Positions 19,487-62,738 of a DNA stretch of 64,000 nucleotides are shown here, one piece after another. How positions within the stretch are numbered: the first letter of the stretch is position 1; each line of letters opens with the position of its first letter. Source of the stretch: Psammoneis japonica (lineage: Eukaryota); the NCBI GenBank assembly GCA_008632985.1, contig QPGO01000088.1:62001-126000 (forward strand), written 5' to 3'. The notes beneath the pieces were generated by a model. The model searched no databases. It was not told the origin of the DNA and saw only the letters and a list, made by a program, of their open reading frames with translations. The translations under genes were made by a program, and so were the position numbers.

Positions 19487-19859
19487 TTGAAATGTTAGTG
19501 CTTTTTAAAGTGAAAGGCAATTGCAGTAGACGTAGAAGTACTGTAGCTCACCTTACCTGAAAATGCTACCGGTCATAGCTTCCTCGCGCAGCAGGTGCTT
19601 TTAGGTGCAGGAGTTGTCTACAGTGAAACCTATATCGGGTGCGATAGATTTAAAAGGAAGTTTGATAGTACACTAAGGTCTTTCCGCCTTCTGGCCTATT
19701 TCATAGTACGTACCTACGAGCATTGCGTTTGGCGACACCAAGCTTTGGTTTCGGATGGATTTTGGATTTCGTGTCCATACATGATGCATGATGTTTTGTG
19801 ACCGTTGCTTGTTTGTCGTTGGGCACTATGTGGTTGTTCGGGTGCATCTAATTGGGCGT

Positions 19860-22800
19860 CTCACGGAGTGATGTCATTCAGAGCATGATGAAAAGAACCA
19901 GGTTGTGCTGCAAACTTCTCTCAAGTGGATCAGCAGGCACTGCTTCTTGAAAATGCACTGAGGTCAATGAGAAGTTGCCATTGCACCACTTTCACTGCAA
20001 ACAAGAAACAAGACAGCACATATGTGCACTCATTTTTCAAAGACAAGGTCTTTTCAACCCACATTTGTCCTTTTGTGATTGTGCCCTTTTCTTTTTTTGA
20101 CAGAGAACACCAACGCACAACAAGGCAAATTTGCACATGCTCTGTGTTTGGGCTGCATCTCCTCCTTCAACAATGATCTTTTTGTGAATGCTGCATGCAT
20201 CATTCCAACACACAGGCAAAACCCCACTCTGTGTGTTGGAAAGCACTTGGTTTTGTGCATTTGTTTGGTTGTTCCAAAAGGAGGAGGAGCTTCAGCCCCG
20301 CCAACACAAAAAGAGTTGTTGATTTTGAGAGCAAAATTCAATTTGTTCCCATGAGTGAATGATGCCTGCAGACATGTGGGAGGAGCATTGTGAACTGTGC
20401 TGCATGATGGGGAGCTCTGTGCACAGAGCAAAATGCTTTTTGTCGAAATGTCAAGTTGATGTGTGTGCTTGTTTTATTTTGAGAACTTCTTTCAACCACA
20501 CAACTGCAGAAGGGGCACTGGCTGACAATGTGAAGTGGATGTGAAGTGTGTCATGAAGACAATTGCTGGACACTGGGCAAGTGTTGCTGAACTCACAGAG
20601 TTCCGTTGCACAAAGTCTCTGCCCATGAGGTGGTGGCATCAAAACACATCTGTGCAATGCAGAAACAACCATGTGCAGACCAATTTAGATGTGTGTGGCA
20701 GAATCAATGGCACCAGCTGTGTGTTGATTGAGCCCAGAGCAGGGTGTTGAAATGGCCTGAGGTGATGGTGCAAGAACTCCAAACTTGAAAGTTGCCACAA
20801 AATCCTTCCACAAGAATGTCTTTTTTCTTTTTTCGTGTGAACAGAAAGAGAAACAGCACCCACAGACAAAGCAAAATGTGGTGTGTCATGTGCTGTGGGG
20901 CATGACATCATGGACAACAGTGACACACAGGATGTGAGTGTTGTGCAAAAAAAAAAACATGAGGCAAAGTTCAAACATTGTCAATTTGATGAGTGTGTGA
21001 TGAGCAAACACTCTGGAAAAATTGTTGGCACATGTTTCCCCTGGTGCTGGAACAAGTCAATTGCCCACACCAGGTGGCAACTCCTTTGCTCCACTGCCAT
21101 TGGCACATTCAATCTGGCAGCAGAGCCAGCCAGCATTTCCTGCTGTGTGGCATGATTCTTGTGTTTTGATGCCACCAACACCCAGTCTGGCACAAAACCA
21201 GTCAAAATCTTTTTTGCTGGCTGGTCTGCAGCACTTCTGATCTCCAGCAAAAAGGATGACTCCGACTCTGGTGCACACCAGCACAGTGTGCCGTTGGGAA
21301 AGAAGCAGTCTTTTTGCCTTGGCTTTCTTTGTTGTGGCCAGGTGCAAGCACATGAGATCCATTGCAAACTGAGCTGCTGACATTCAAGGCAGTGTCAACA
21401 CATCATGGGAGGGGAAGCTGGGGTCAAGGGCATGACCATGTGCAAAGATTTTGCTCCTTGCACTGCTCTGGAGCCCCTCCTGTGCAGACCCATTTTTGCA
21501 GCACACCGTGACTGTGTGGCACACTGGTTTCCTTGGCTTGCCCAAAGCAGAACAAAAGAGGCTGTGCGTTGTTCTCATCAAAATGCCACTTCTCTGCTGT
21601 TCACAAAAAATTGAAAAAAAGCCAAAAAATTCCATCATCAATGCCCCACGTTTGAGTTGAGCGGGGGTTTTGCATCCATGTCATCAGGTCAACAAAAGTG
21701 CAAGGCAAGCCATGCTGGTGGTGTGGCATCTTTTGCCTCCCTGCCGGACACTCATGAAGTCACAGCTTTTGATCAAACCTTGCTTGGAGCCACAGCCCTT
21801 CATTGAGCTTTGTTCCAGTCCAAAAAGTCACACAGCAACAGCTGTTGGCACAAGTTTTGCAGCAGCTGGGACAAACAGGTTGTTTGAGACAAGTTGCTCA
21901 GCACGCACTTTTTCTAAAATGATGCAGGCAGAAGTGATGGCAGGCTCCACACACAAGATGCATGACAGGACACAGGACATCTTGCAACCATTTCCAGCCA
22001 TGTCTTTCCAGCCATTTTTTCAAATGCTGCAACTTTGGTCTGCTCTGCAGGACTGCTGCCAAGCACATTTGTGAGAAAGCAAGCAGCACATTTTTTCAGG
22101 CACAGGCATCATGTGCTGGACCAACAATGAGCTGGCCTTGCCAAGCAAGTGACATGCATTGTCAAGGTGTTCAGCAGGGTGAACAAAAGAACAAAAAGGG
22201 TCAAAAATTCTGCAAGCTTCTGGGGCCAATCTGGCCTTGGACTTGCTTGTGCCCAGTTGGGCAGCCCTGGCTTCAGATCATGTGTGCCCAATTGTTGCTC
22301 CAGCTTTGGGATTGGTGCTGGTTGCTGTTGCCAAGACTGACTTAATTTTCAGCAAATTTCAAGAAAGAGTGATTGGCTGCTGAGCTTTCAGCAGGAGATT
22401 CTATGGGGAGTTGCTTGTGGAGCAGTCTGCACATGCATGTGGTGGTGCAAGAGAAGAGTCCATGACCACAGTGTGCTGAAGGTGTGCAAGAGTGGTTCTG
22501 TGAAGGTGCGCGGTGACACCAAGAACATCATTCTCTCTTTTGTCTTGGCCTGTGACCAACATGGCCTGCAAGATCATTCAAAAGATTTTGACAAAACCCC
22601 GCAACAAATCAAATTGTGAGAGGATCCAGAGGAGGCACTTGCTGACCAGCAATGTCAATGCTGCTTGCCATCAATCAGCTGGAAGCTGCTCTAAAATGGC
22701 AGCACTTGTCTGTTGTGTGCACCACACACAAAACAATTACACGCAAACAAGCACTGGGCTTGCTCTGACCCTTGGTTTGGCTCTTTTTCAATTGGGATCT

Positions 22801-23150
22801 TTGTCATTGGAAGCACATTGCAAATGCATGCTGCCAACCAAGAACCAGTGCAGAGAAACTCTCCATCTTGGGCCATTTGGCATCTTCCACCAAAGTTGTT
22901 GCTAGATTCAATGTGACAAAATGGCAACATCAGACATTTTTTCATCCATGACCATTCGAGATGACAAAGGCATTTGCACCCTCCATCTTAGTTTGCCTGC
23001 ACAGAAACAAATCAATTGGTGACAGCATTTGTCCACCCCAGATCTTTTTTGCTGGCAACAGCCTTTGTCCACCCCAGATCTTTTTTAGTCATCAATTCTC
23101 CCTCCTCACCAACAACCTGCTGCATCTGCAGCAGACAACTCTGAACGACC
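19860..23150. mobile_element. Heavily mutated repeat or transposon relic of unknown class (TpA- and CpG-depleted island)
   Basis: About 10 TA dinucleotides in ~3.3 kb, few CG, strong TG/CA excess, no intact ORF. Element class not recognisable. Confidence 0.55.
23022..23086. repeat. Tandem duplication, 36-bp period, ~2 copies
   Basis: ACAGC(A/C)TTTGTCCACCCCAGATCTTTTTT occurs at 23022 and 23058. Confidence 0.85.
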
Positions 23151-23152
23151 CC

Positions 23153-23407
23153 ATGGATGAAGCCGATGTGGATGTCATCCACTCTCCTGTCAATGAACTT
23201 GAAAGGCAACAACTCATTTGCTCATGGGATGAAAGAGGAGAGAATTGTCGTGGTTGCGACTCTGACAATCTGCGCCTGGCTCTAATGTTCCTCCCGATTT
23301 TTGCCGGGCTCATTTTTGCTCTGCTGCGGTCATGTCGAGGGAACGGGACAGCCTTTGCGTCCACAACAAGGATGCCCGCAGCAATTGCTACAGCGTACGC
23401 TACTTAG
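23153..23407 (+). CDS. Possible small single-pass membrane protein (84 aa) or remnant
   Basis: CCATGG start and one hydrophobic segment LALMFLPIFAGLIFALL. Lies at the edge of the mutated island. Confidence 0.25.
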   Translation: MDEADVDVIHSPVNELERQQLICSWDERGENCRGCDSDNLRLALMFLPIFAGLIFALLRSCRGNGTAFASTTRMPAAIATAYAT

Positions 23408-23568
23408 TGTGTGGATTTGCTCAATGTCATAGAAATGGAGGCGGGATAAAGTAGGACTTTAGCATCGATCCTGCTACCATGGAGTTTAACGAGCCGCTGA
23501 GGCAAGACATGCTTGGACGATGAATAAATAATAGTCTATTTTAGATCCCGTCTGCCGAACTAAGAATG

Positions 23569-25925
23569 TCATCTGGTGTAGTCCTCATCTAATGCATCCG
23601 CCTCCGCATCAGTTCTTGACTGCAGCAGAGCTACACGAGCAAGCCATGCACAGACTCGAAAAACTTGGTACGAAAGGAAAACTCCCCATACTGAAGCAAG
23701 GTTTGTACCTGGCTTACCAGCGAGCGCAGCCTTCTTGACCCGAAGTAGGAGCCACGGAACAGCTGCAAAATACCCGGCATACGCTTTTCCGAGAAATCCC
23801 AAATCCTTGCGCCCAAGCAGCACGCCTTCAGTCGCACAAACCGTTCCGTGCAATGCGAAGACTCCCATGAGCAACGGTATGACAGAATTCACAAGATGAA
23901 CGACCATTGGATCAGACGTGAAGAACCTGGAAAGAAGCGGTATGCATCCGACTGCTGCAACCATGAATGAGCTAAAGACAGCTCCGGCTTTCACAAAGTT
24001 CATACTCGTCTTTCGCAGTGCCTTTGCTCGAGCGCTGCTAACCTTTTTTTCGGCAATGACTGGAACGAAACTCTGGGCCGTCAGACTGAGGGAGTCCGCG
24101 ATAGGACACAGGCAATAAAATAGCGAGACAATAACCTGCTGTGCTGCCATGCTAACAGTGCCCAAAGAACTTGATACAACGTGGGACATGGCAACGTATG
24201 AGGAAACCCGGCCAACTTGAGTTGTGGTGACTGGAACGACATATGGCGAGAACTCTGACACAGCCTCTTTTGAGGGAAACTTGAGCAAGTCGCGGCCTCT
24301 GAAGCGACCCTCCAGGAAACCTCTCACCGAAAAACTTTCATCTTGCTGCTTCCCGTCGAGGTGTTGATGCGGCTTTTCTCCTTCAGGGCGAAACCTTGCG
24401 GCAACCGAGCGGATTTTCTGCGAGAACCATTTCCGCTTCGCACCCTTCTCTGCACCTCCTGGGGATGGTACTTGTAGGGAGGAGAGAGCATCCGCAAATC
24501 TTCTCCTCCGTCTGGCGCCCTTTTCGTTGGGTTTCCCTGTTAGTTCAATAATCGCACTGCTTATGTTAATCACTTCCGGTCCCCGGCGTGGCTTGTGACA
24601 GAGCCAACGGATGAACATCGCCAAAGCTGCGTACTGAGAGAAAACAGTCGCCCACGCAGCACCTGCTGCACCACCAAAGAGAGGGTGGTTCATGCCAACA
24701 AAGGTCATGTCTCCTAGGAAGTTCACCACAGCCGCAGCAGCCAAAACGTACAGAGGAGATCGAATGTCCTGCATGCCTAGGCACGCAGCCTGGGCCGACC
24801 CCAAAACAGCCGCGGCAGGCATGCCAAGAGCACGAATGCGAACGTATTTCATTGCAGCAGCAAAAACATTCGGACAAAGTCCATCGTTTCCAATAATGGC
24901 ACTTAAGAGTGGTCTTGCGAATACCATCAAAATAGAGCCAAGACCAAGTCCAACATATCCAGATGCCTGAAGGGACGAAATTAGCGTTTTCGTGGTGCGT
25001 GGCTTCCCTTCCACGCCTCGATCGGTCTCCTGAGCTGCAGCGACCAAATTTGTTGTGGCTGTGTACATGAATGCCTTTTCAGCGAGTAAAGCAAGAGCAA
25101 GTCGTTCCGTGAGATCCGGAAGAACGTACACATGGGGAACACCAATCACACCGAATCACTTACAATGAGGAGGGCCGCATAATCCGTAACCGCAACAGCA
25201 GGATTCAATGCAGCTTGCTGCGAGGTCCCCGATAGCAAACCGACCGCACTTGTATCAATCAACGACAACAAAGGACTACAAAGCCAAACCCCTATCGCGG
25301 GTACAGCAAAGGTCAGAATCTTCTTGACACTTGGTGCCGTAACGCTCACTGCTGAATCCCCAACTACGGACGGCGCAGACACAATTTGCGGCATTTCCTT
25401 TGGGGCTTCCAGTGTACTGTTGGAAGGAGGACTGGAGATGAGCGGAATACCGTCGACAACCTCACTATGAAGTGAAGCCTCGGCAGCTGCTGCTGCTGCG
25501 AGGACAGCGCCCACATTTTCCGCCGACTCTTTCGCCTCTCTCTCCAGCTCTGTCTCCGCAGTAGTCTCTGCAGCGCCTAGAAGAAATTCAGTGGCATTTG
25601 AAGAACCTTCCACTGTATGTTCGGCGCCAAAGAGGAATTCTGCAACGTCGACCGGCTCAGTAGCAATGGGCTGTAGTTCATCTCCAAGCGTCAATGAATT
25701 CGATATACCCTGATTTGATTCATCTTCTTCAGCTGGGTCTGAATTTTCAATTGAGCGGTCATATATTCGGGAATTGTGGCCCAACTTTAAGCGGTACCTG
25801 CTTCTCGTTCCTACCAAAACAGATCCGTGGCTTCTAAAGGATTGGGATGCCTGCGGAGAAAATGACTGGGCCCTCGGCACCGCCAAAATCAGGCAGCTTA
25901 CCAACAACACACACTGTCTACGCAT
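23569..25925 (-). CDS. MATE efflux transporter (DTX46/47-EDS5-like), probably plastid-targeted; intron 25075-25163
   Basis: Signal peptide ending AQS-F, ILTFAVPAIGVWLCSPLLSLIDTSAVG, YVRIRALGMPA, GAAWATVFSQY. Confidence 0.88.
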
Positions 25926-26495
25926 TTTGCGCTTTTCGAACAAGGTACTGTATTGAAGTAATGTTCCCTGTGGATCGGTGAGTAAAGAATGTGAGCGACA
26001 GGTGACCTTGAGAAGAGCAGAAGATTCATGCATCGAATGCGATGGTGAAAGCACGGTTGCGGCAGAAATTGGAAATGCAGCTGAGCTGGATGACGTGTCC
26101 AACCCGAATCTTCGCCTGTGAGTCTGTCCCATCAGGCGGTCGATGTCTTTCGCGCGCGATAGCATAACAAACGACGCGACCAGTTTTTGCGTCAATTTTC
26201 TGCACACGATGACCCGTAATCTTTTGATCTTCATCAAGGCAAAGTCGTCGACATTGATACAGAAAAGGAACACAGCGACACAAAAATACAGGCAACAAAT
26301 CAATGCAGTGTTCGTTGTTTCATACGCACTCCTGCCTTCCTGCGAAAATGGCAAGCAATTTCGAACCGTGTGTTTTCTCGAGGCTGCTGCGTCTGCGTGG
26401 GTTCTAGTGTGTTGGTTACACTCACGTCCAGTCTACTCTACTACCGGTAGTCGTTATTACTTGCGTAGAAATGTACATAGATTTTTGTATGAGTC

Positions 26496-26939
26496 GGATT
26501 CGATGGTGTGCGATGCCGATCTCACCCAGGACTAGCCCAAGGACTGCCTTGCCAAGAACCACCAAGAAGTGACTCGACATTGGAGCACTTAGAAGTCTCG
26601 TGGAGTAGAGTTTTCGGTAACACCCTACTCCGTACTAGGGGGGTTGGGTAAACCCATGCCCTCCGCAGGGTCTCGAGTGAAACTCGAGGGCTCGATGATT
26701 GGTTCATCGGACCATGCTCCGGGCGCTTCCGAGCGAACGCAGTGGGGGGTGCCTTCGGCATTGCGCGACGTCGGCACCCCGAACTGGCAGGATCTCAAAC
26801 TCGGAATGGAAGAGAACGCCAGACGCCATTTGTTTGATTACGTAGTTGGGCGTCGTCGAGAATGTGGAACCGAAAGGAACCGATCTAGACTCCAGCGACA
26901 GACTCCCGCGGTCTTGTCGACACAGGTGAGCACAAATCC
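26496..26939. repeat. Split direct repeat B2 (444 bp)
   Basis: Colinear direct copy of 27194-27637 with ~25 differing sites. Confidence 0.95.
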
Positions 26940-26958
26940 AGGGAGTGGTGGGTGGGTG

Positions 26959-27194
26959 GCAAAAAATGGCTTTTCCAATGCTTTGGCATGGTCCAGTCAC
27001 GTTGATCAGAGTTCCTGTCTCAACAAAGATGGAAAAGTGGGGAAACAGGATGCCGACAAGTTTGACCGGTCACAGAAACCGGTCATCTTGGCCCAGAGGT
27101 GCCCTCCTCTGGAAGAGGCACATGTCGGTGGACTAGCCAGATGAGAGGTCTTGCCTCGCACGGTTCGTCTCCATCTAAACTTGGGTGCGAAGAG
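26959..27194. repeat. Split direct repeat A2 (236 bp)
   Basis: Colinear direct copy of 35375-35610 with 9 differing sites. Confidence 0.95.
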
Positions 27195-27637
27195 GATTCG
27201 ACAGTGTGCGATGCCGATCTCACCCAGGACTAGCCCAAGGACTGCCTTGCCAAGAACCACTGAGAAGCAACTCGACATTAGAGTGCTTGGAAGTCTCACA
27301 GAGTGGAGTTTTTGGTGACACCCCACTCCGCACTGGGGGGGTTGGGTAAACCCATGCCCTCCGCAGGGTCTCGAGTGAAACTCGAGGGCTCGATGATTGG
27401 TTCATTGGACCATGCTCCGGGCGCTTCCGAGGGAACGTAGTGGGGGGTGCCTTCGGCATTGCGCGACGTCGGCACCCCGAACTGGTGGGATCTCAAACTC
27501 GGAATGGAAGAGAACGCCAGACGCCATTTGTTCGATTGCGCAGTTGGGCGTCGTCGAGAATGTGGAGCCGAAAGGAACCGATCTAGACTTCAGCGATAGA
27601 CTCCCGCGGTCTTGTCGACAAAGGTGAGCACAAATCC
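27194..27637. repeat. Split direct repeat B1 (444 bp)
   Basis: Direct copy of 26496-26939, abutting A2. Confidence 0.95.
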
Positions 27638-27720
27638 CCCCCGATGAGAACTCCCAGGCAGTGGCCACCACAGAGATCAGCTTGTGACAAACGCACCCTG
27701 AAGGCGCACCCGAGCCAGTT

Positions 27721-29343
27721 TCACATTTCATGAGTGTGTCTTAAGAAGCAAGGGAGGAGGAGAGAGATGTCAGCGCAGTGTTGCCTCATCTTGTGAGTCG
27801 GCCTCATCCCTCCAGCTCGATCCTTCTTTTTCCAACGATTCACCAGGTCAATGTCGTCCTCCGACACATTTCGAGCGATGGCTCTCGAATCCGACCCACG
27901 TCAGAAGGACCTGCTCACATCGCACTTGTCCTCAATGTCCGAATGGGAGGTGATGTCTGCCCCAAAGAGGGACGGGTGGTCGTCAAAAAGCTCCGACAGG
28001 GCGAGGTGAAGAAGTGCATTTGGGTCATGGGTGGACAAGACCTTCCCAGCATCATCCGACATGGCTGGGCCTCGAGCTCATCCTCTTGATGCCTGAAAGG
28101 TCACAACTGCCTGGACCCACTGCCGGAGGCGAATGCCTGATCCCGTGACATTTGCACTCGGAAGCAGGTGTTGGCGCTCCCCATGTTCTCCCTTGACTCG
28201 ACCGAGAAGCGGAATCACCATGCAGGATTGATGGAGAGGCAGGTGTTCTTGCATGGCGCCCAAATCCATGAGTGAGCCTTCGGGGCCTCGGAGGGACAAC
28301 GTGAAACCAGCCGCGAAGCAGAGGCCACCAGTCAAGCACCTGAGGCGATCCTCAGCTGCGGTGGCCCGGTTGAACTTCTCTTCGATCCGGGGCAAAAGAT
28401 GTTGCATGATCTGCACCGAGATGGCCCTGTCTGGTCTCCAATCTTGGCCCGTGCGCCTTTTGCAACCTGTCACAAACCTTTGGAACCAGAGGGAAGCGCA
28501 AGGGTCCTCGCAAATGCGGAGACATTGTTTGCCCTCAAGGTCCGCAAGCGCTGAGGCTCGCCTGTTTGCAGAAGCCGAGGACCTCACCTGATTCGAGTGC
28601 GCAGTCCGCAGCTTCCCAATGGTGTCGAATTGAGTGTAGAAGTCAGAGTGCCGACCCGGGGACGTCAAAGCCAAGACCACCTGCATCGCGACCTCATGTC
28701 CACAATGATCAAAGGACGGCAGAGGTCCTGGCTCCAAGTGAGGACCTCGGAGCCCCAAACGCTCTGAGAGAGCCAAACCCCGGGCGACCTTGGACGCATT
28801 GTTCTCTACCGTGGAGGTCTCCCTGCTCCAGAAAGCGTCCAGGTTAACCCGCCTGATACAAGCCAAAGCCACCTGGTCACGTGGTGAGGTAGAGAAGGGG
28901 TCTCTCTGGCACAACTTGTGGAAGATGCACCCGTCGCACTCAAACGCCACCATCAAATGGTCCCCGGTTCGCGCCCGTGTAAACTTGTCCTTGTCCTGTG
29001 GTTTCCGGAACCAGGTGTCATCCTCGATCCGAGCGGCGTCCTCACCGGGAAGTTCCTCGCTGTCGTTTTCTTGGTCGGGCTGGAGGATCCCCCCCAGGTG
29101 GAACGTCATGTTTTTGCTTGAAGTGTGGCACCCGGGACACCACGCTTTTCGACACGCGGGCCAGCCCCCGACACTGTGAACAAAATTGGCGAAGAAGATG
29201 CCCCTCGTCCACTTCAGCATCCTCCCACACTCTGCGCAGCGCCCGGTCCATTGAGCACATTTTTGGGGTGCCTTGGAGCTGCCACGGACTGTGCAGGACG
29301 AAAGGAAAAGCAAGGCCTGTGAGCAGAGGTTCGAACATCTCAC
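27721..29343 (-). pseudogene. Tyrosine recombinase of the retrotransposon; in-frame TGA at 28078-28080 and 27901-27903
   Basis: LSLRGPEG (catalytic Arg box) and LLGRVKGE. Reading through the stops gives SRSF*RGS (SFRRG box), VNRW and MRQHCAD, where the catalytic Tyr is expected. Confidence 0.85.
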
Positions 29344-32300
29344 CGGGCCAGAAAGGCCCGGCCCCAGCCGGAACTCGAAACACCAAGTCGGAAGCCTTGT
29401 GCAATTGTTTTTGCCACTCAGGGGTCATCAGGCGGGGACACACAAAGATGTGGAAAGAAGTCTGTCGCTTGAGTCGGGCAATCCGCAGTTCTTTGAGTGC
29501 ATTCCTTGCTGCTGCCGGGGGCGGAGCCCAGACCCAGGTGCCAGAGCGAAAAGCAGGCACTTCAACAGCTTCGTAGGGTGGGCAGCACCACCCAGACATG
29601 TCATGCCCTTTCTGACACCAATCAAGCGGGGAGAGCAGATCGGCTGTGGGAGATCCAGCCCAAGACTGAATCCACCCCAGGAGTGGAGGTGCTCGCTCAG
29701 TTGCCGGCAGGTGCAAGGGGACAAACGAGAGCATCTTGGCTCCATTCATCACCCCTTCCAAAAGGACCCCTCGAGAAACTCCGTCCGTGCCCTGGGCTGT
29801 CATGCGACTCCCTGAAACATGAATCAAGTGGAGTGTAAACCCATGCTCAGCCTCCAGGACTCTGAGCCGCACTGCTTGTTCCAGGAGTTTCGGGTTGGAA
29901 GAAGTTCCCTTGTAGACGGCGACTTCCGAAACCGAATTGTCCGTGAAGAAATGCAACACAGCACGGTCGAGTTCCCCCGCCTCGGCCAGTTCCTGGATGG
30001 AGTCCACTGTGTTGGTTAGTTCCTTCCAGTTTGACGAGTTCGACTGGTCGTCATCGCCCCAGACACCAATCCTGAAGACCATCGCCCCGTCCTTCGTTTC
30101 CACTGAGGATCCAAGTCCCTTCCCCGACGCGTCAGCAAACCCATGCAAGACCACCACGACCTTGGAGGACCTGATTACCCTGGTGGTTGGTTTTTCAGGT
30201 TCCAAGATCCGCTGCAGAGCCTTCAGATCCAACAACAGACGCGGCACCGCGCGAACGGACTCGGGGTGTCCCGCATCCTGGAGGGCCTCCCTGACTTCGT
30301 ACGGTTCCATGCCGAGCTTGTCCGCTTCGTGCTGAATCCACACTGCACATTCCTTGTCTGACACAGCCCATCCATCGGGCTTGCGGTTAGGTCGCCACCC
30401 ATCCAGGGTCAAGTGGATTCCTTTAAGGAACGGGGTGACAAACGGGCAGGTCATGGCCGTGTGGACTAAATGTCCTCGTTTCCTCTCCAAATCCTTGAAA
30501 TTGAACAGTGGGAGGGAGGAGGCGGCCGATGCGTCGTAGGGGCTCAACAGGTCTGTGATCATCGTCTTGCTCTTGTCCCACTTCGCTTGCGACAGGGATT
30601 GGGTGACGTCCCCATCTATCACTCGAAAGATCGCTCCGGCCCAGGCCCTGGTTTCGCGCTGGGATGGCGGGCGCACCTTCCGGGCCGCGTTTTGGAGACC
30701 AAGACACTGGAGTCTCGAAGCCATTTGATGACCCACTTGCCAAGCCTCTTCTTTGCTCGATCCCATGCCCCGCAGATCATCGACGAAGGTCTTTATGTCG
30801 CCTGCGACGACCGCTTGACGGGAGTTCCACTCAACCACCAGGGGCTTCTTCACATCGTAATTGGGATCGCCCGGCAGATTGAATGGGATCTTGTCAAAGC
30901 CCATCGGGTTCCCCGGCCGTCCCGGGTCCCCCCGGGCCACCTCATCAGCCCAACAACAAGCGCGCACGGCCAGGCAAGGACTGGGTTTCACACCCATAAA
31001 TGAGCGGTTCCACCTCTCCAACCCCACAGGAGCCTGACCAGCCAAAGGTTTCGGCAAGTGGTCGCGAAGCGGGGTCAGGTCGATCCCGGCGTAAGGCCGA
31101 ATGCGGGGGTCCACAAAGAAGTTGAGAAACATGTCCCCCAGGTTCAAGTCAACAGAGAAGGTGGTTGGTGTCACACAGCCGAGGACTGAGGATGCAGTCG
31201 GGAGGTAAAATGAAGGTGCCCACAGCGCGTCGTTTAGCCCCGACGAGGCACCGTTGTAAACCATGCGAATGTCTTCCACGACCTCTTCCATTCTTCCATC
31301 GCTTCTCGGCAACAGAGACACCGCCTTGGGGACCCAAAAACAGTCGGTGAGGCTGGACACTGGGCCCGCCTCAATGTAACCGTGATCCCGGACCTTCTGA
31401 AGTTTTGTCGCCATCTGCTGGATCTCATTGGATGTGCCGCGGATGCGTTGCCGCCGGCGATTTCGAGGGAGGGTGGTCTGGACGAAGATCGGAGTGCCGT
31501 CACGGGCCCCATCCCGCTGCTCGGGAGAGGGCCAGCGCCAGAAGAAAAGCGAGGACCCCCGGTCCCAACTCCACCAAGAACTCCCCAGAGCCTGAATCAA
31601 GACGTCAGCCCCCAAGTTGGCGTCCAACAAAAGGGAGGGGAGAGGTGGGTCCCGGTGCAAACCCCCCTGTAGACTCCCAACAGAGTCCCCAAACCATCGA
31701 TGAAGGTGTGCCAGGCGGGTCATCCACCCTGGGCCACAACACCGACGCAGGAAACCCAATGGCGACCGGGTCAAGCGTCGCCGCCACCATCGGTGGGCCA
31801 GCCCGCGAAGGGCCGGAAGCACCGGTTCAAACATGGGAAACAAGAGTGTGATGCGCTTGTCCCAAAGGCGACAAGGGGGGGCAACCGAATCCCCTTTTGC
31901 CGCCTTGGCGGCAATCAGGGACAAATCGATCCAGTCGTGCGACAAGCACCGACCCAGGCGCGGCAACCATGTAGCCCGAGGACCAGATGCCGGAAGCTCA
32001 GGAGACCGCGTGGGTTGGGCTGGCTGGACCTCTGGCGGCAACTCTGGGCTGGAGTGTTGTAAAATGAAACCGTCCGTCACCACATGGAGGAGATTTAACG
32101 GAACCATCTGAGTGAGGCCTTCACCCCCCAATCGGTCCCGAATGGCTGGAGACTGAAACCGAGTGGGAAAATCCCACCCTGCAAGGAGTTCATCTCCAGT
32201 GAAAGCACGAAGAGTCCACCCCGTGGGTGACCGGTGGGACTGGCAAAGAACCTTCCGCCCCAAATGGTGGGGGTGCAGCAAATCGCACTCACGGTGCACT

Positions 32301-32860
32301 GTTTCACCCGGCTCTGATGGGCCAACCTGCCCCTTGCATTTGCAATCGATGATGTGGCCGATGGTCCGCCGCAACCCGTGATCGAGTTGTGGCAACGCGC
32401 CCCCGACACAGTAGAATGTTGTTCGGAAGGAGGTCACGCCTCCAACCGCCGAATGAGCAATGGCTGAATGAGGGAGATGCTGGAGCCCCTTCAACGCTCG
32501 TCTCGACATCCCCCCGACCGGGACCATGTGCATCGGGCACGAGGTCCCCACTCGCGAAACTCTCTCCAAAACACAGGGAGGGCCCGAAACTGGTGCCAAA
32601 TCTGCGCTCTCCAACGCATGAGGCACCCCAGAGAAAGGGATGCGCTGAAGAGAAGCTCCGTCTTGCGACTCAAAAAGCGCAACAAGGACCGACTCCAAGG
32701 GAGACGGGTCAGAATCAATCGAGCAAAGAACAACTCGAGGCCACTCAGCACAGCGGAGGGCCAAGAGCCAAATGGGGGGACCCCCAGAGATGACCAAGCA
32801 TGTCCCACGAAAAGCAAAGGATTTGCGGCCGCGGATGACGTGCCCCACATTTTCGTTCAC
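29042..32860 (-). CDS. Pol-like ORF: N-terminal extension, reverse transcriptase, RNase H, C-terminal DIRS MT-like domain (degenerate)
   Basis: WVPK...IRMVYN, DLNLGDMFLNF, MGVKPSP, FVDD; RNase H FADASG, SSNWKEL, FTDN, HVSG and DGVSRG; WVWAPPP...IFVCPRL...W. Confidence 0.88.
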   Translation of the reverse strand: MNENVGHVIRGRKSFAFRGTCLVISGGPPIWLLALRCAEWPRVVLCSIDSDPSPLESVLVALFESQDGASLQRIPFSGVPHALESADLAPVSGPPCVLERVSRVGTSCPMHMVPVGGMSRRALKGLQHLPHSAIAHSAVGGVTSFRTTFYCVGGALPQLDHGLRRTIGHIIDCKCKGQVGPSEPGETVHRECDLLHPHHLGRKVLCQSHRSPTGWTLRAFTGDELLAGWDFPTRFQSPAIRDRLGGEGLTQMVPLNLLHVVTDGFILQHSSPELPPEVQPAQPTRSPELPASGPRATWLPRLGRCLSHDWIDLSLIAAKAAKGDSVAPPCRLWDKRITLLFPMFEPVLPALRGLAHRWWRRRLTRSPLGFLRRCCGPGWMTRLAHLHRWFGDSVGSLQGGLHRDPPLPSLLLDANLGADVLIQALGSSWWSWDRGSSLFFWRWPSPEQRDGARDGTPIFVQTTLPRNRRRQRIRGTSNEIQQMATKLQKVRDHGYIEAGPVSSLTDCFWVPKAVSLLPRSDGRMEEVVEDIRMVYNGASSGLNDALWAPSFYLPTASSVLGCVTPTTFSVDLNLGDMFLNFFVDPRIRPYAGIDLTPLRDHLPKPLAGQAPVGLERWNRSFMGVKPSPCLAVRACCWADEVARGDPGRPGNPMGFDKIPFNLPGDPNYDVKKPLVVEWNSRQAVVAGDIKTFVDDLRGMGSSKEEAWQVGHQMASRLQCLGLQNAARKVRPPSQRETRAWAGAIFRVIDGDVTQSLSQAKWDKSKTMITDLLSPYDASAASSLPLFNFKDLERKRGHLVHTAMTCPFVTPFLKGIHLTLDGWRPNRKPDGWAVSDKECAVWIQHEADKLGMEPYEVREALQDAGHPESVRAVPRLLLDLKALQRILEPEKPTTRVIRSSKVVVVLHGFADASGKGLGSSVETKDGAMVFRIGVWGDDDQSNSSNWKELTNTVDSIQELAEAGELDRAVLHFFTDNSVSEVAVYKGTSSNPKLLEQAVRLRVLEAEHGFTLHLIHVSGSRMTAQGTDGVSRGVLLEGVMNGAKMLSFVPLHLPATERAPPLLGWIQSWAGSPTADLLSPLDWCQKGHDMSGWCCPPYEAVEVPAFRSGTWVWAPPPAAARNALKELRIARLKRQTSFHIFVCPRLMTPEWQKQLHKASDLVFRVPAGAGPFWPGEMFEPLLTGLAFPFVLHSPWQLQGTPKMCSMDRALRRVWEDAEVDEGHLLRQFCSQCRGLARVSKSVVSRVPHFKQKHDVPPGGDPPARPRKRQRGTSR

Positions 32861-32884
32861 CTGTGGTGCGCCCCCCCCCTGGCC

Positions 32885-35356
32885 TCATTTCTTTGTCTCC
32901 AGAGCCTTCAGACGACGGTTCACCTCTTTCAGCTCCGCTTTTAACTTGTTCACCTCTTGGTGTGCCGTGTCGGCTCGCGCCTGCGCCGACTTTGCTTCCG
33001 TCCCCGCATTCTTGGCCTTGTCGGTGAGGGTCACAACCGTGGCCTGCAAAGCTGTCACCACTTCAAAACCCGAATTGGTCGCGAGGAACTTGACACACTC
33101 AGATGCCATCGAGGGGTGGTCCTTAAAGTTGTGCGCCGTGCATTCGGCCATTACGTCCTGGGACCTGAACACCGCCCAAAGAATTTGACTGCACACCGCA
33201 TCGGGATCCGTCCCAGCGATCGAAGTGAAAACCCCTGACCGAACCTGGTTGAGGTCATCGAAGATCCAGTGTACGAGTTTCGACGTCAAAGACCAAGCCT
33301 GTTTCTGAGAAAACTTGCTCAACTGCACAAGATTTTTGCAGGTCTCGTCCATGAACTGCATCAGGGCCCGTGCGAACGCCACGGACTTGGACAGAGCGTC
33401 TCGAACAACCTGGCTCTCAAAAGAACCGCTCGGGATCCTCTGGGAGATGTCATTTGGTGCATTGCGTTCGATCGTGACGATCTTTTCCATGACAAAGTGT
33501 TTGGCACCAGTGGACCCAGTCGTCCAATGGTCATGGGATGACACCTTGTCTGGGAAAGAGGGGTGCAGCCCGGGTGACTGAGCTCCTTTCGCTGACCCCG
33601 AGTCAAGGATCCTCGGCATGCTGCATTGGAAACTGGCAAGAGTTCGCGCATCCTCCTCCGCACTGATCTTCAAGTCCATCCGTTTGGACAACCCAGCAAG
33701 GAAGTGATGCAACGCGGCGAGCTCGGTGCCCGCAATTCGGCCCAACAACAAATTGGCATCCGTAAGACAGCCATGCACTCTGGAAGAAAAATGCTGGACC
33801 ATCCAGGCCTTGCACTCTGAAAATGACGAAACGCCTGCACCCGAGAATTTGATGGCTGAAGATTCCGATTTGGACTTCAGCTCATTGACCGCTTGGCTGA
33901 GGTCTCGGATTTGACGATCGAGTGTCCCAGAGGGCGAGACACCCGCTCCACTCACCCCACTGCCGAAGCCAGCAACTCCTCCACCCAACGTAGCGGCGTT
34001 CTCCAACCTCTGCACTTTTGCCACTAGTTGGTTGCAGACTCTCAGGGTCCCCGCCCTCAGAGAGTCCAGGTCGCGTTTAGGAGCGAGGCTGGAGAGCTGG
34101 GCCTGGACCCTTTGAAGAGCTGCAGTAAAACTTGACGCCAACCTGTTGGACCCGGCCCGAGCGCTGCTTTCCAAGCGGGCCATTTCAGTAGAAAAATCCC
34201 GAGGTTGAGCCGAACTCAGTGTCGACAGGTTAGCGAGCGTCCCCCAGATAGTTGGGGCTTCCACTCGCTGGTCGAGCTCCGCCGGAGGGGCACCAAGAGT
34301 GGCATCGAGCTGTTCCAACTTCCGACTCAGCACATCAAGTGCCAAGTCCGAGTCTTTGAACCTGGAGCAGGCTTTGTTTCCCAAGTCGACCAGAACTTGT
34401 CCCGTCTCCGACAAGTTTCGTTCGACCGACTGCACCACACGAGCCAGGGCCGCCGGGCTCTTGTTTGCTGCAAGAAATTGGGACGGGGCAGTGGCAATCG
34501 CCCGTTGGCAAGGGGAGAAGTGGCCAAACTGTGACCCCGGAAACAAATCGCTCCCAGGATCCTTGGTTTTCGCTGGGGTTTTGTAGGCCGCAGCCTCCTT
34601 GCACTGCTTGAGAGACTCGCCAAACTGATCCTCCGTCGGGAAGCGCGACTCACTGTTTCCTAGAGCTGGGAACTTTTGACGCCACCCCGCCAAGGTGTCC
34701 GATGCTGACTCCCACTTGACCAACACATCAGCAGAGACAAATGAGCCGTCGAGAGTGGGTTGGCAGAAAGCTGCACCCAGCGTCTTCAGGATCGACACCA
34801 TGCCGTTCGGAGGCACTTGTTTCTTGGATCCCTTGTGTTTCACTTTGCACTCCGAGGCTTTCTTGAAACAAAATGTCGCACCACTCCCAATTGCGCCAAG
34901 GCACCGGGTGGTGTCGGTGCCCTCCATCCAGACGACACAAAAACGAGGAGCATCAGACGAAGGAGACGCACCTTCCTCCTTCGACGTGAACGCCCCTCGA
35001 GTTGCTCCCTCATCCCCCGGAGCAAAAAAGTCCACGCGTGGTGCGTGGGCCTGCGCTCCGTCGGCTCGCGAAAGAAGGACATCGAAAGCCGAATCTGGGT
35101 TGGGGGAGTTGACCTCCCCCAATTCCGCGAGCTCAATGTCCGAGTGCCCAGCGTCGGTCATTCCAAGGTTCAAGCCCCCAAGGGAGGGGTTTGGGCCCTC
35201 AGTGCCCCCCTGATGACCCGCCCCAGAGGGTGGGGCCCGAGAAGCGGAGGACGAAGGAGAACGCGACGAGAACGGAGAGATGACATCTGACTCGAGAGTG
35301 CGGGCAATGTTGACGAAGGCCTCGTCATTGACGCCGGAAGCAAAGAAGTCAGACAT
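32885..35356 (-). CDS. Gag-like ORF1 of the retrotransposon
   Basis: First ORF after repeat A1, with a Cys/His cluster CLGAIG..FC....C...H and coiled-coil segments. Assignment is mainly positional. Confidence 0.7.
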   Translation of the reverse strand: MSDFFASGVNDEAFVNIARTLESDVISPFSSRSPSSSASRAPPSGAGHQGGTEGPNPSLGGLNLGMTDAGHSDIELAELGEVNSPNPDSAFDVLLSRADGAQAHAPRVDFFAPGDEGATRGAFTSKEEGASPSSDAPRFCVVWMEGTDTTRCLGAIGSGATFCFKKASECKVKHKGSKKQVPPNGMVSILKTLGAAFCQPTLDGSFVSADVLVKWESASDTLAGWRQKFPALGNSESRFPTEDQFGESLKQCKEAAAYKTPAKTKDPGSDLFPGSQFGHFSPCQRAIATAPSQFLAANKSPAALARVVQSVERNLSETGQVLVDLGNKACSRFKDSDLALDVLSRKLEQLDATLGAPPAELDQRVEAPTIWGTLANLSTLSSAQPRDFSTEMARLESSARAGSNRLASSFTAALQRVQAQLSSLAPKRDLDSLRAGTLRVCNQLVAKVQRLENAATLGGGVAGFGSGVSGAGVSPSGTLDRQIRDLSQAVNELKSKSESSAIKFSGAGVSSFSECKAWMVQHFSSRVHGCLTDANLLLGRIAGTELAALHHFLAGLSKRMDLKISAEEDARTLASFQCSMPRILDSGSAKGAQSPGLHPSFPDKVSSHDHWTTGSTGAKHFVMEKIVTIERNAPNDISQRIPSGSFESQVVRDALSKSVAFARALMQFMDETCKNLVQLSKFSQKQAWSLTSKLVHWIFDDLNQVRSGVFTSIAGTDPDAVCSQILWAVFRSQDVMAECTAHNFKDHPSMASECVKFLATNSGFEVVTALQATVVTLTDKAKNAGTEAKSAQARADTAHQEVNKLKAELKEVNRRLKALETKK

Positions 35357-35374
35357 GTTCGAGCGAGAGAGGGA

Positions 35375-35610
35375 GCAAAAAACAGCTTTTCCAATGCTTT
35401 GGTGTGGTCCAGTCACGTTGATCAGAGTTCCTGTCTCAACAAAGATGGAAAAGTGGGGAAATGGGATGCCGACAAGTTTGACCAGTCACAGAAACCGGTC
35501 ATCTTGGCCCAGAGGTACCCTCCTCTGGAAGAGGCATGTGTCAGTGGACTGGCCAGATGAGAGGTCTTGCCTCGCACGGTTTGTCTCCATCTAAACTTGG
35601 GTGCGAAGAG
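35375..35610. repeat. Split direct repeat A1 (236 bp), 5' end of the element
   Basis: Direct copy of 26959-27194. Confidence 0.95.
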
Positions 35611-35682
35611 TCCTCAACTCACTTGCGACTCCTCCGACGCGACGCAACCGACCCACCAAGCAAACGGGCAGAAGTTGACGTA

Positions 35683-37718
35683 ATCATGACGTTTCGCGTC
35701 GCGCGGGACTGGGACAAGACACACCGCACTGCACCCGCCAGGCACAGCTGGCTCCTCCACATGCTCCAGCTGCACTGCGACACAGCGCACAGGCGTGGTG
35801 GGAAGAGTGGAGAGCAGGCACATGCAACATCCAGCCAGCACAGAGCTGCCAGAAGCAGAGCAGTGAGCAGCCCAGCCAGCTGGAAACAGACAGATGGGAG
35901 CAACAGCTTTGGCAGCCATTGTCGATGCCAGCCAGCGGCAATTTGCAGCAGCCCATCACAAAAAGAAAGAGGGCAGCTCTCAGGAAGAACTTGTTGTTCT
36001 TGCCATGCCTTGCACACAATCTGAAGCTGCTTTCTGATGGAAAACATGGCAGCTTCAGTCTTGCTGCTGCACACATCTAAAGTCACATCCTTCGCATCAT
36101 CATGTCTCTCAAGCAGTGCACAGCTCCCCACAGGCTGCTGGGCTCTCTGCACAAGGAGAAGAAGGTGCACGCTCTCACTGTCTCTTTGGTGTTCATCAAG
36201 TGGCCTTTTCATTGCTGGTGCCCTTTGGGCATGCAACTTTTCTTGGGTGCTTGTTGCGGCCACTGTGGCAAGAAGGAATCTGGCGCACACTCCAGCTCTG
36301 CCTTGCACTGTGCCGCACTGTGGCATGAAAGTCTTTTTGACCATGCCACATGTTGTGCACATGCATTTCTGTGTGTGATCCACTGTGAAATTGTTCTGCA
36401 CTTCCTGTTTTGTGAAGCCAAAGGTTCTCCATTTTCTTCATTTGTGAAAGCAAAAAAAGTGCTGGGCGTGCTCTTCAACGTGTGAAGAGTGTGCCTGGGC
36501 AAGCTGGGAATCATGTGCTTCAAGCGAGGACTTTTTCTGTTGGCGGCCATTTGCATGATGTTCATTGCTGGACAATTTTGCTGTGGAGCTTGCATGAAGA
36601 ATTCTGTGGGCCTGGTGTTGCGCGCAGCCCCGCCTGGGTCCAGGGTGCATTGTCTGTTGTTGTGTCAATGTGCTTGCCTGCACCCATCATGTGTGTTGTG
36701 CTTTTCTGGCAAAGCTCAGCCAGCAGAGCCATCAGCACTTGTCGTTTCATTGTCATTGCAGAAAGTGCCCCACAATGCAATTTGCACCTTTGGCAGAAAG
36801 CTGAGTCCTTGACAAACCATGTTCTTCAAGACTGGGGTGAGTTCCGCAAGATCTTGTGATTTTCCATGACAGAGGAGAAGTCCACCCTTGGCATCTGCAG
36901 CTGCCTGCTGCAAACTGCACTGCATGCCCAGTTTCTCACCCAAGTTTCTGCCACTCCAATGCCGACAGCCGCCCAGTTCATTGTCATCTTCTCTCTTCCC
37001 CTTGTTCCTCATGCAAAGTGCAGACAAGGTTTTTGTGGTGCAGCAGCGTGCAGTTGTTTCCATTTTTGAATTGCTCATTGTGGCCAGTGCTTGCTTTCCT
37101 CTTGTCTTTCTGTTGAACAGTTTTCAACAACTTCTCATTCATTGTGATGTGCTGGTGGGCCGCTTGCTCCCAGAGGCAGCAGGTGCGCAAATTGTCTGTT
37201 GTCATTCTCATGTGCACATTTGCACACCACACAGCAAACACAGGAATGACAAAACAACTCTGTGCATCAGGTGACAACAAATGATTTGTGCGCCTCTCTG
37301 GTCATTCACTCCAGTTTTGAGCAAGTTTCTGGACAGACGCTGGCTGTCCAAAGAAACTCTGTCCTCTCCAGTGCATTTTTGGGTTTTGCCAGCAATTGCG
37401 AGCACCTTCATTTTTGCACAAGAAAACAGTTGAGCTCATCTTCTGTGTCTGCCCCTTGCCCCCTGCCTGACCTGACCCCCAGGACTGGAGAAAGATGGGT
37501 GAGACATCTGGGTTTGGGGCTGACCACTTCCAAAATGACCAAACATTTGCAAGAAGTTTTTGGACATGAAACAGCGCTCAATGATCTTTGAAGGCTTCAG
37601 GACCTCACATGCATTGCTCTGCAAACAATGCAAAACACACCAAATTTTGCCACTGCCTGTGACCGACGACCGACGCGTGGTGCATCGCATTCGGCAGGTC
37701 GCGACACTCGACAGATGT
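35683..37718 (-). mobile_element. Decayed transposon, possibly MULE/MuDR-like
   Basis: One TA in ~2 kb. Minus-strand fragments TTDNAPWTQAGL..P...CKLH and FTVD...CMCTTC....MPQC resemble the MULE D...CxxH motif and a SWIM finger. No terminal inverted repeats seen. Confidence 0.45.
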
Positions 37719-38287
37719 TAGCTGTCCAAAGCAATTCTCTGTCCTTTGTCGTGGAGCGAGGTCAGAATACAGCAGAGTCTGTCCACCGGTGCAGTGCTGG
37801 CAGAGAGCGATGAAAGGGAACCACAGCAAACGCCCTGATTGACAGACTGTACCAGTACAAATTCTACACCAGATTTTCTTTGGACATAAGCTGTCCAGAG
37901 TCATCCCACAGCTTGAGAGGTCTGCACCACTATCCCCCGTTGATCATGAACACATACACCGTTGCATCGACAGACTCTCTCTGCCACTAGCTAGCTAGCT
38001 AGAGAGAGAGAGAGAGGCGTCGTTATTGTAGGTAAACACGTGCTGTGATTGGGGTCAGCTCTTTGTGGAAACACATTGATAGTAACATACTCGTTCCTTC
38101 AGTTTATCGAAAGGCTGATTGTAAGCAAGTCTCTACTGTACAGATACGGGACAGCTAAGAACGGTTGAACCCAGTACCGTGAGGTGGTAGCAGGTTTGCT
38201 GGTTAATTGTTGGCGGTCCCGCCTGTGTGATCTGTTTGTTTCCAAGTTGATAATTCAGCGGACACCTTGCAGCTACTTTCATAGACT

Positions 38288-61479: not shown

Positions 61480-62520
61480 GGCTCTCGTCCCCTTGTTTTG
61501 TTCCTCGTCATTCTGTTCTTTTGATCGTTTTTTTTCTTCAAAGGGATCCAGAAGGAACACAAGGAACAAAGTCAGCAAATCATCCTGCACTCAACTGTGG
61601 CCCACAGCTGCTCTCCTGAATCCACACCCTCAACTTTTTCTCAGTCTTTCAATGACAATGGCGGGCAGGCTGTTTTGTGAAGAAGAAGAAAAAGACCTCT
61701 CTAAGCAGGGCGCCCTGTGCCACACACCACTTGGGGAGCAGCACACCCAGCTGCTGCTGCCGCTCGCACTTGCAGTTGCCAAAGCAACAAAAGTTTTGTT
61801 CTTCCTTTGCTTCCTCTAGGTGGCTTTTTTTGCTGGCACCGCGCTCTGCTGCCCCTCCCAAATGCACATGAACACACCTCACTTCTGTGAGCAGTGCCCA
61901 CATCATGCCATGACAAAGTCTCTTGGGGTGGGCAGAAGAGCAGCCTCATGATGTGTGGCAAAGTCTCTCCCAGAGCACAAGAAGTTGCTTTGCTGCAAGA
62001 AAAGAGTGAGCCTTGGGGTTGCAGCCGCATCTCCAAGCTCAAAAGCAAAAGATGTCCCTGTTTTTGAGTTGAAAGTGCACAAAAATGGATGCCCATCTCA
62101 TGGGACACAAAGTGAGCAAGAAGCTTGCCAGATGATGACAAGCACACTGTGCATCATCAAGGAGGAGTCATTGAGAAGGAGTGAGAAGCACTGAAAAGCC
62201 CTGCCTGGCTCCCCATGATGGGGCGGGCAACTTGCCACCTCACACCCATCTGAGCAGCGAGCAGAAGTTGTTGTGGGCAAGATGACACTTCTTGTTGTCA
62301 GCTCCAATGTGCAATCTCTTTGCCAAATGCTGAGAACAACAACACATGCTGCCTTAAAGTGCTTGGGTTTAAGAAGAGAAAGAAGACACACAGCTCAGAA
62401 AATGTCATGAAGCATCTCTTCAATGCCAGCTGTAAAAAGAAAATGTGTTGTTGCTTCTTCTCATGACTTCACAAAGAAGGGAGCTGTGTTTCATTTGAAG
62501 TGGCACCAATGCAGGTGGAT
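61480..62520. mobile_element. Third TpA/CpG-depleted island; degenerate repeat of unknown class
   Basis: About 5 TA in ~1 kb, TG/CA-rich, no intact ORF. Confidence 0.5.
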
Positions 62521-62738
62521 CCTTGTGTTACAAAATTGACCATTGACAGCAATGTTGACAATCTGACATTTGGTGTTCTGCATTGGACCAAATGGCACAG
62601 ACAGCATGGGTGACTAAAACGACAGAAGAAGCCATGATGCAATATGAAGTTGTTGTAGCAAAGCCAACACCACTACAGTAGCTAGAGAGGAGGGTGCAGG
62701 GTAAAGTGTTATTTGCATGTACCAAAATAAAGGATAGT

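Follow-up and report, generated by a model that had tools for sequence, protein, structure and literature searches.

Hypermutation directed at TpA dinucleotides has been described in Bigelowiella natans; our literature search returned that preprint only, and no report of TpA-specific hypermutation or of RIP (repeat-induced point mutation) in diatoms. According to its text, 230 of 231 new mutations in the integrated virus DNA of B. natans mutation-accumulation lines were A>G or T>C (bioRxiv 10.64898/2026.01.13.699255), and the new mutations, which all hit TpA and appeared in only some lines, exceeded the background rate about 1000-fold (Mettrop et al., bioRxiv 10.64898/2026.01.13.699255). The targets were an integrated giant virus and a virophage. 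The B. natans genome carries 124 clusters poor in TpA and rich in CpA and TpG, and reverse transcriptase and DDE domains are over-represented among its TpA-poor coding sequences. The authors suggest an adenine deaminase of the ADAT2 type as the agent, liken the process to RIP and state in their Discussion that a U or T ahead of the edited A is preferred by enzymes of the ADAR and ADAT types (bioRxiv 10.64898/2026.01.13.699255). A second point of reference is the split-direct-repeat layout of the Ngaro and PAT-type tyrosine-recombinase retrotransposons, in whose description A1 and A2 are identical to each other, as are B1 and B2 (PMC4157794). Here we report an element with this layout that has lost most of its TpA. 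It lies in a window of 64,000 nucleotides from the diatom Psammoneis japonica (assembly GCA_008632985.1, contig QPGO01000088.1, positions 62,001 to 126,000), and all positions below are those of the window.

The element occupies 26496-35610 on the minus strand (9115 bp), more than the interval 27721-35356 in which a previous sequence-only reading had recognized it. It is a tyrosine-recombinase retrotransposon of DIRS order, Ngaro/PAT-like, and a member of that group by descent, its recombinase being dead. Self-comparison gave the minus-strand order A1, open reading frame (ORF) 1, ORF2, ORF3 and B1-A2-B2, and the A1...B1-A2-B2 layout is also present in the related loci L003 and L031. The repeats found in related loci are mostly contig-end overlaps of 100-130 bp, which are not independent proof that the repeats are identical at insertion.

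TpA is depleted in the element relative to its flanks. The observed/expected (o/e) ratio of TpA is 0.13 in 27721-35416 vs 0.51-0.52 in the flanks, and 27721-35356 holds 45 TpA, as against 333 expected from base composition and 170 from the flank rate (Poisson P 4e-30). Relative to the closest relatives the density has fallen from about 33 to 5.9 per kb, with TG and CA both higher, and about 82% of the TpA in the interior of the element is lost. CpG is mildly low (o/e 0.78 vs 0.91-0.99 in the four closest relatives), and the GC content is 58% vs 48-50% in the flanks. The loss ends at the border, as the roughly 90 bp just outside the 3' end (26405-26488) retain 12 TpA. Related loci were taken from metagenome contigs (L001-L080, the best 80 of 247 confirmed matches); their TpA o/e ranges from 0.45 to 0.78 with a median of 0.63. 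A family-wide low TpA content was ruled out, since no value below 0.45 occurs among these 80 loci or below 0.33 among their 830 1-kb windows, and none of either approaches the depletion of the element. The sequence-only reading had argued that TpA loss cannot create stops, so that ORFs stay long. In line with this, TAA and TAG together occur 8 times per kb in the element vs 31 in the flanks, and long ORFs are found in all six frames because the loss of TpA removes these two stop codons.

The consequences are clearest at tyrosine codons. A single tyrosine had been noted in ORF1 and in the recombinase frame, and our counts agree (1 in the 843 aa of ORF1 and 1 in the 540 codons of ORF3, with stops read as X). 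The claim that tyrosine codons are erased is correct in full for TAT and does not hold for TAC, of which 12 survive; all 12 surviving tyrosine codons are TAC, while TAC makes up 49% of the tyrosine codons in relatives. Tyrosine is 0.79% of ORF2 (10/1272) vs 1.35-3.27% in 56 homologues. We aligned ORF2 with 50 of these 56 (P0001-P0050), counting a column as conserved for tyrosine when it was the majority residue at 60% or more, and ORF3 with 25 loci that had one stop-free match over at least 90% of the query, out of 73 matching loci. In ORF2 the tyrosine is kept at 4 of 11 conserved columns, the others being Cys (three), His (two) and Phe (two). In ORF3 none of the four conserved columns keeps its tyrosine, the residues found instead being His, Cys, Cys and His. 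Over both proteins tyrosine is thus kept at 4/15 conserved columns vs 456/553 for other residues (Fisher P 5e-6). Nine of the 11 lost residues are Cys (5) or His (4), as expected from the proposed change of TAY to TGY or CAY, and the other two are Phe. Of 10 conserved isoleucine columns 3 are unchanged, and the replacements in the others include Met (three) and Thr (one), as predicted by the change of ATA to ATG or ACA.

These replacements are not native to the family. The sequence-only reading had named Cys or His in intact homologues as the observation that would speak against it; none of the 50 ORF2 homologues has Cys at the 13 Tyr columns examined, where the element copy has four Cys and two His, and the comparison with homologues supports the interpretation as a whole. 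Residue 73 of ORF3 is Tyr in all 72 loci compared and His in the element copy. The motifs PSPCLA, RLQCLG and VLHGFAD (ORF2) and HCGHEV (ORF3), picked out earlier by eye, all lie on family-consensus Tyr columns. ORF1 has no conserved Tyr column among its relatives, and so ECVKFL has no column for comparison.

The recombinase has also lost its presumed nucleophile. The codon at 27775-27777 reads TGC on the minus strand, within KMRQHCADISL, as had been noticed. It is residue 523 of ORF3, the only near-invariant Tyr downstream of the conserved NRW in the family, and by its place in the family alignment it is probably the nucleophile position. Both internal stops are TGA and both align to Arg in all four closest relatives, which fits the suggested deamination of CGA. 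The catalytic set (Arg, Lys, Arg, His/Trp, Tyr) is therefore not intact in the element copy, with TGA at 481 and Cys at 523. All checkable statements of the sequence-only reading were thus borne out, with the corrections given above on the size of the element and on TAC codons. What goes beyond that reading is targeted hypermutation with a published precedent, timing by the element's own repeats, and neighbouring tracts that are depleted in CpG as well.

The repeats of the element give the specificity of the process. A2/A1 and B2/B1 differ at 34 places over 680 aligned bases: 13 are TA vs TG/CA, 10 are TG-CA doublets, 7 are CG vs TG/CA and 4 are other changes. Loss of one ancestral TA from both copies by different routes would produce such doublets, and 23 of the 34 events (TA vs TG/CA or TG-CA doublets) match the B. 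natans type of hypermutation. One copy retains TA against TG at five sites and against CA at eight; together with the Cys and His outcomes (5 and 4), this indicates that both strands were hit. Sense-strand RNA editing of the ADAR type, which would give A>G on the sense strand only, was rejected because TA to CA and TA to TG changes are equally frequent.

The repeats also indicate the pace of the loss. There are 6 TpA in B1 vs 11 in B2, and from shared and private counts about 50% of the TpA has been lost in B2 and about 73% in B1. Over repeat B the TpA loss is 50-80% vs a CpG loss of roughly 3-8%. In this young element the loss of TpA runs far ahead of that of CpG, so the two processes are at least kinetically separate. 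TpA changed about 120-290 times faster than a background of about 0.3% per copy, a rough figure as the background consists of 4 differences. Sequence context matters too: TpA of the ATA/TAT type survive at 0-7% of the family density and those in other contexts at 14-30%. The trinucleotide comparison did not separate which base of ATA/TAT changes, and the element is GC-richer than its relatives.

Reads covering the region came from one public sample, with a DNA-like run (X1) and a run that looks spliced (X2). A contig of run X1 joins 26495 to 35611 with one letter between, skipping 9115 bases, at a depth of 28.3 vs about 58 for single-copy sequence. This half-depth empty-site allele confirms the borders and shows that the insertion is still heterozygous, hence polymorphic, and together with the divergence of the repeats it means that TpA was lost far faster than the background. 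Comparison with the empty-site contig revealed no target-site duplication at the borders of the element (flanks GAGTC and TCCTC). Over the element itself the X1 depth is 83-832, and 600 pieces show 467 transitions and 107 transversions relative to the window. It therefore belongs to a multi-copy family whose copies differ mainly by transitions, TG/CA doublets included. Two X2 contigs were placed in the window and neither overlaps the retroelement, for which no RNA data set was listed.

Three further tracts of the window are poor in TpA and also in CpG. In each 250 bp of the first (19750-23250) there are 0-2 TpA, 0-5 CpG and 54-68 TG+CA, vs about 9, 14 and 37 in normal DNA, and over the three tracts TG+CA has risen by about 21 per 250 bp, as much as TpA and CpG have fallen together. 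Run X1 contigs at a depth of about 58 reproduce the window sequence, TpA/CpG-free tract included. Six-frame Pfam searches of 19750-23250 and 35650-37800 gave no identity, nor did six-frame tblastn of both tracts and of 61500-63000 against the 80 related loci and the rest of the window, and 19600-23400 holds no ORF of at least 150 aa. The tracts may be old, fully converted relics, so that the element and the tracts would be two stages of one history. At the left edge of the first tract, a variant in the reads changes five of seven TpA to TG/CA and one CpG to CpA within 62 bp (19527-19588). We take it to be the other haplotype, mutated further at the edge of the tract, its polarity and allelic status being assumed. 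These 62 bp belong to an expressed gene on the plus strand, which has an intron at 19315-19428; they lie in its last exon or at its 3' end.

Table 1. Features of the retroelement and of the TpA/CpG-poor tracts, in window positions
Feature	Position	Strand	Remarks
Whole retroelement	26496..35610	-	From self-BLAST repeats and the run X1 empty-site contig
Split direct repeat A1, element 5' end	35375..35610	-	94.5% identity to A2 over 236 bp
ORF1, gag-like, 843 aa	32885..35416	-	Single Tyr is TAC, residue 278
ORF2, reverse transcriptase and RNase H, 1272 aa	29042..32860	-	10 Tyr, every one TAC
ORF3, tyrosine recombinase, 540 codons	27724..29343	-	2 in-frame TGA, 1 Tyr
TGA stop, ORF3 residue 422	28078..28080	-	Arg in 4/4 closest relatives
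TGA stop, ORF3 residue 481	27901..27903	-	Replaces near-invariant Arg of RSFRRGS; Arg in 4/4 closest relatives
TGC (Cys) at presumed nucleophile Tyr, ORF3 residue 523	27775..27777	-	Tyr in 50/51 related loci, Cys in 1
Split direct repeat B1, internal copy	27194..27637	-	93% identity to B2 over 444 bp
Split direct repeat A2	26959..27194	-	Pairs with A1
Split direct repeat B2, element 3' end	26496..26939	-	Pairs with B1; least mutated part
Clustered variant, left edge of first tract	19527..19588		Run X1 depth 32 of 62; also in spliced X2 contig
First tract, TpA and CpG nearly absent, TG+CA excess	19750..23250		Single-copy; X1 contigs 19589-22708 at depth 46-60
Second TpA/CpG-free tract, adjoins element 5' end	35700..37750		Multi-copy; X1 depth up to 360
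Third short tract, low TpA and CpG	61801..62400		Next 400 bp (to 62800) low in CpG only

We observed the polarity and context of the TpA loss, its restriction to the element and its timing. The explanation that we consider likely is a DNA-level, element-restricted hypermutation of TpA to TpG or CpA in the integrated retrotransposon, which was probably mutated after it had entered the chromosome. The process would act almost only on TpA, changing A:T to G:C on either strand and yielding TpG or CpA. It would be confined to the element, ending at its 3' edge, with ATA/TAT contexts hardest hit. Tyrosine codons (TAY) would become TGY (Cys) or CAY (His), and the isoleucine codon ATA would become ATG or ACA, leaving frames open and proteins ruined. 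In the recombinase the nucleophile Tyr would thereby have become Cys, and ordinary decay of CpG to TpG would have added the two TGA stops. As TpA would go fast and methyl-CpG slowly, a young element would be poor in TpA with its CpG mostly kept, and old tracts would be left without both. By analogy, this may be a host defence of the kind seen in B. natans, and its chemistry may be that of an ADAT/TadA-like enzyme which deaminates adenine to hypoxanthine.

Several points weigh against this explanation. At the nucleophile site Cys is also present in the related locus L013 (3771-5375), whose TpA o/e is normal (0.55). Run X1 may be the sample used to assemble the window, in which case it is not independent support. 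The rate is derived from one element and only 4 background differences, with no de novo mutation observed. An independent-loss model expects about 0.5 TG-CA doublets in repeat A, where 4 are seen, so that this model requires rate differences between contexts; the difference in context between doublets and one-sided sites is borderline (Fisher P 0.05), and the doublets could alternatively derive from CpG. The variant at 19527-19588 could be a paralogue and not the other allele, and the type of the responsible enzyme is suggested by signature and precedent.

The main rival to mutation in the chromosome is editing before integration. An intermediate of the transposition cycle (RNA, cDNA or extrachromosomal DNA) would have undergone deamination at TpA, in the manner of APOBEC3 on retroviral cDNA or of ADAR on double-stranded RNA, and the element would have been inserted already mutated. 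We regard it as unlikely. It would also fit the exact coincidence of the edge of TpA loss with the 3' boundary of the element, beside 90 bp that keep their TpA, and it agrees with a multi-copy family whose copies differ mostly by transitions and with an insertion young enough to be heterozygous. However, editing of single-stranded RNA or minus-strand cDNA yields only TG or only CA, and the two strands of the element were hit about equally. Furthermore, the A and B copies differ at TpA-derived sites, though such repeats are described as identical (PMC4157794), and clustered TpA changes occur in a variant of a tract without recognizable retroelement. Finally, the signature in B. natans, as its authors describe it, arises in place, in integrated DNA (bioRxiv 10.64898/2026.01.13.699255).

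The loss could also be a passive by-product of silenced chromatin or base modification and not the work of a dedicated defence enzyme, a modified T or A at TpA miscoding as 5-methylcytosine does at CpG, so that one chromatin or modification state causes both losses. This would suit the three tracts, where TpA and CpG disappeared together and the TG+CA gain matches their sum, as well as the mildly reduced CpG of the element and its two stops of CpG to TpG origin. We find it improbable nonetheless, given that TpA loss so far exceeds CpG loss in repeat B and that hypermutation in B. natans was on in only some of the lines reported, a better fit to a regulated activity.

We consider it very improbable that the pattern is one of native composition or selection (for example codon usage or escape from RNases that cut at UpA), or that modified bases misled base calling or assembly. 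In favour of such readings, flanking host DNA is already poor in TpA (o/e 0.51), and long-read assemblies tend to carry A>G and C>T errors where bases are modified. Against this, no related locus or window comes near the depletion of the element, Tyr residues that are near-invariant and needed for function have been replaced, it is at exactly the TpA-derived sites that the copies of a repeat diverge, and run X1 contigs repeat the TpA/CpG-free sequence at the expected depth. Assembly error in particular was rejected, as these contigs carry the tract at single-copy depth, and fungal RIP was rejected because it runs in the opposite direction, TpA being lost and GC raised in the element.

The identity of the proteins had to be sought through predicted folds, because sequence profiles are blind to ORF2 and ORF3: no Pfam match was obtained for ORF1-3 at E up to 10, and PDB sequence profiles of ORF2 and ORF3 gave nothing meaningful. 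ORF2 is a reverse transcriptase (RT) with RNase H according to its model. The AlphaFold model of residues 470-1080 (predicted local distance difference test, pLDDT, 77.6) matched in Foldseek the RT of cauliflower mosaic virus (CaMV; E 1.2e-13) and those of MoMLV, Ty3, FIV and HIV-1 (to 1e-9), over 540-690 columns, and FVDD and DAS motifs can be read in the sequence. Outside RT/RNase H, ORF2 is conserved over about 470 residues at its N terminus and about 190 at its C terminus, to which no function is assigned. ORF3 has, as modelled, a tyrosine-recombinase fold. Its model (pLDDT 67.8, poor at residues 511-524) aligned with a staphylococcal integrase (Z 14.9, root mean square deviation, rmsd, 3.0, 172 aligned) and with Cre (Z 14.8, rmsd 4.9, 275-282 aligned), with Xer and lambda Int also at Z 14-15; the top Foldseek rows were all tyrosine recombinases, with weak E values (0.01-0.3).

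The 56 homologues of ORF2 (P0001-P0056) share 32-50% identity with it, and the named ones are all diatoms (Cylindrotheca, Chaetoceros, Attheya and Thalassiosira). Relatives of ORF1 occur in 31 loci (21-28% identity, Tyr 1.2-2.5%) and relatives of ORF3 in 73. In the ORF3 family R352, K384, R478 and W504 are invariant, and R481 and Tyr523 near-invariant. The conserved Trp and the nucleophile Tyr are separated by 19 residues, whereas in Cre the corresponding residues are 9 apart. Residues 34-139 of ORF3 (about 28927-29242, minus strand) form a Cys-rich N-terminal region in which C36, C39, C64, C69, C136 and C139 are invariant in the family; judged by these residues, it looks like a zinc-binding module in front of the recombinase domains. 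No Pfam domain, methyltransferase included, was found in any ORF or precomputed for the 56 homologues, a weak negative as Pfam misses the RT too. The lack of a methyltransferase domain is what would mark the element as Ngaro as opposed to DIRS/PAT.

Other features of the window were noted. Between the first tract and the retroelement lies an expressed MATE-type transporter gene (23546-26354, minus strand), with an 89-bp intron at 25074-25162 seen in a spliced X2 contig and a signal-peptide-like start with an AQSF/SP motif; its best named matches are in raphid pennate diatoms. A GC-rich array at 45358-47292 consists of about 10-15 copies of 81-90-bp units, and as its periods (84, 162, 171 and 174) are all multiples of three, it is probably a repetitive coding region. 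Self-BLAST also found diverged internal direct repeats of 66-82% identity at 41711-43807.

If diatoms run the defence of B. natans, editing would act in place within the lifetime of a heterozygous insertion and, together with slower CpG decay, end in relic tracts made of TG and CA only. Such stop-free decay would fill diatom genomes with long dead ORFs that gene finders may call genes. The signature (TpA near zero, TG/CA excess, no TAA or TAG, long ORFs in all six frames, Tyr sites occupied by Cys or His) could guide the search of algal genomes for mobile DNA that has been silenced, and could flag false gene models. The element also offers handles on the process: an ATA/TAT preference that a candidate enzyme must reproduce, an internal clock, and a sharp border that bears on target recognition. 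The TpA/CpG-free tracts raise the question whether editing is tied to cytosine methylation of transposons in diatoms. The RIP factor RID has relatives in diatoms, the DNMT4 enzymes, whose function is described as undetermined (PMC9998398).

TpA-specific hypermutation of foreign DNA previously rested on one 2026 preprint and one organism, and the diatom case suggests that it is widespread and old, diatoms being ecologically dominant algae on a different supergroup branch. It is possible, and we put it forward tentatively, that diatoms share a TpA-directed DNA-editing defence with B. natans and that adenine deamination of integrated mobile DNA is an old form of immunity across SAR (stramenopiles, alveolates and rhizarians) or wider.

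Compared with known retroelements, the diatom element resembles the Ngaro/PAT type in its gag-like ORF, RT/RNase H and recombinase, in the A1...B1-A2-B2 arrangement with internal repeats downstream of the recombinase, and in having no integrase and no target-site duplication, as these elements are described in PMC4157794. It is unlike them in that its family is too divergent for Pfam or PDB sequence profiles to detect the RT or the recombinase, and the Trp-to-Tyr spacing of the ORF3 family sets it apart from Cre. Among mutational defences, the APOBEC3 (G-to-A) and ADAR (A-to-I) systems share the deaminase type of restriction that leaves a retroelement riddled with one transition class. They act on single-stranded cDNA or RNA with a strand-asymmetric signature, whereas the diatom element was hit about equally on both strands and its repeat copies have diverged from each other. 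RIP in Neurospora and other fungi is alike in that context-specific transitions at the genome level ruin mobile elements in place, with leakage over the edges possible. However, the change in RIP is from C to T, chiefly in CpA, which becomes TpA, so that TpA and stops are created and GC is lowered, while the diatom element loses TpA and gains GC, and the process makes no stops.

The closest match is the B. natans system, which shares A>G and T>C changes at TpA, TpG and CpA on both strands, and integrated foreign DNA between normal flanks, as far as the preprint reports. Stretches poor in TpA and rich in CpA and TpG are left behind in both, and by the estimate from the repeats the diatom rate, too, would be orders of magnitude above the background. 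The two differ in host, a diatom (stramenopile) here and a chlorarachniophyte (rhizarian) there, and in target, since a tyrosine-recombinase retrotransposon and putative relic tracts take the place of a virus, which widens what the system attacks. The diatom evidence is comparative, whereas new mutations were observed directly in B. natans according to the preprint. The main text of that preprint does not mention CpG, trinucleotides, diatoms or retrotransposons, and its supplements may hold data on flanking context (bioRxiv 10.64898/2026.01.13.699255). Relative to that main text, the preference for ATA/TAT, the timing by split repeats and an empty site, and the older tracts that are also without CpG are new.

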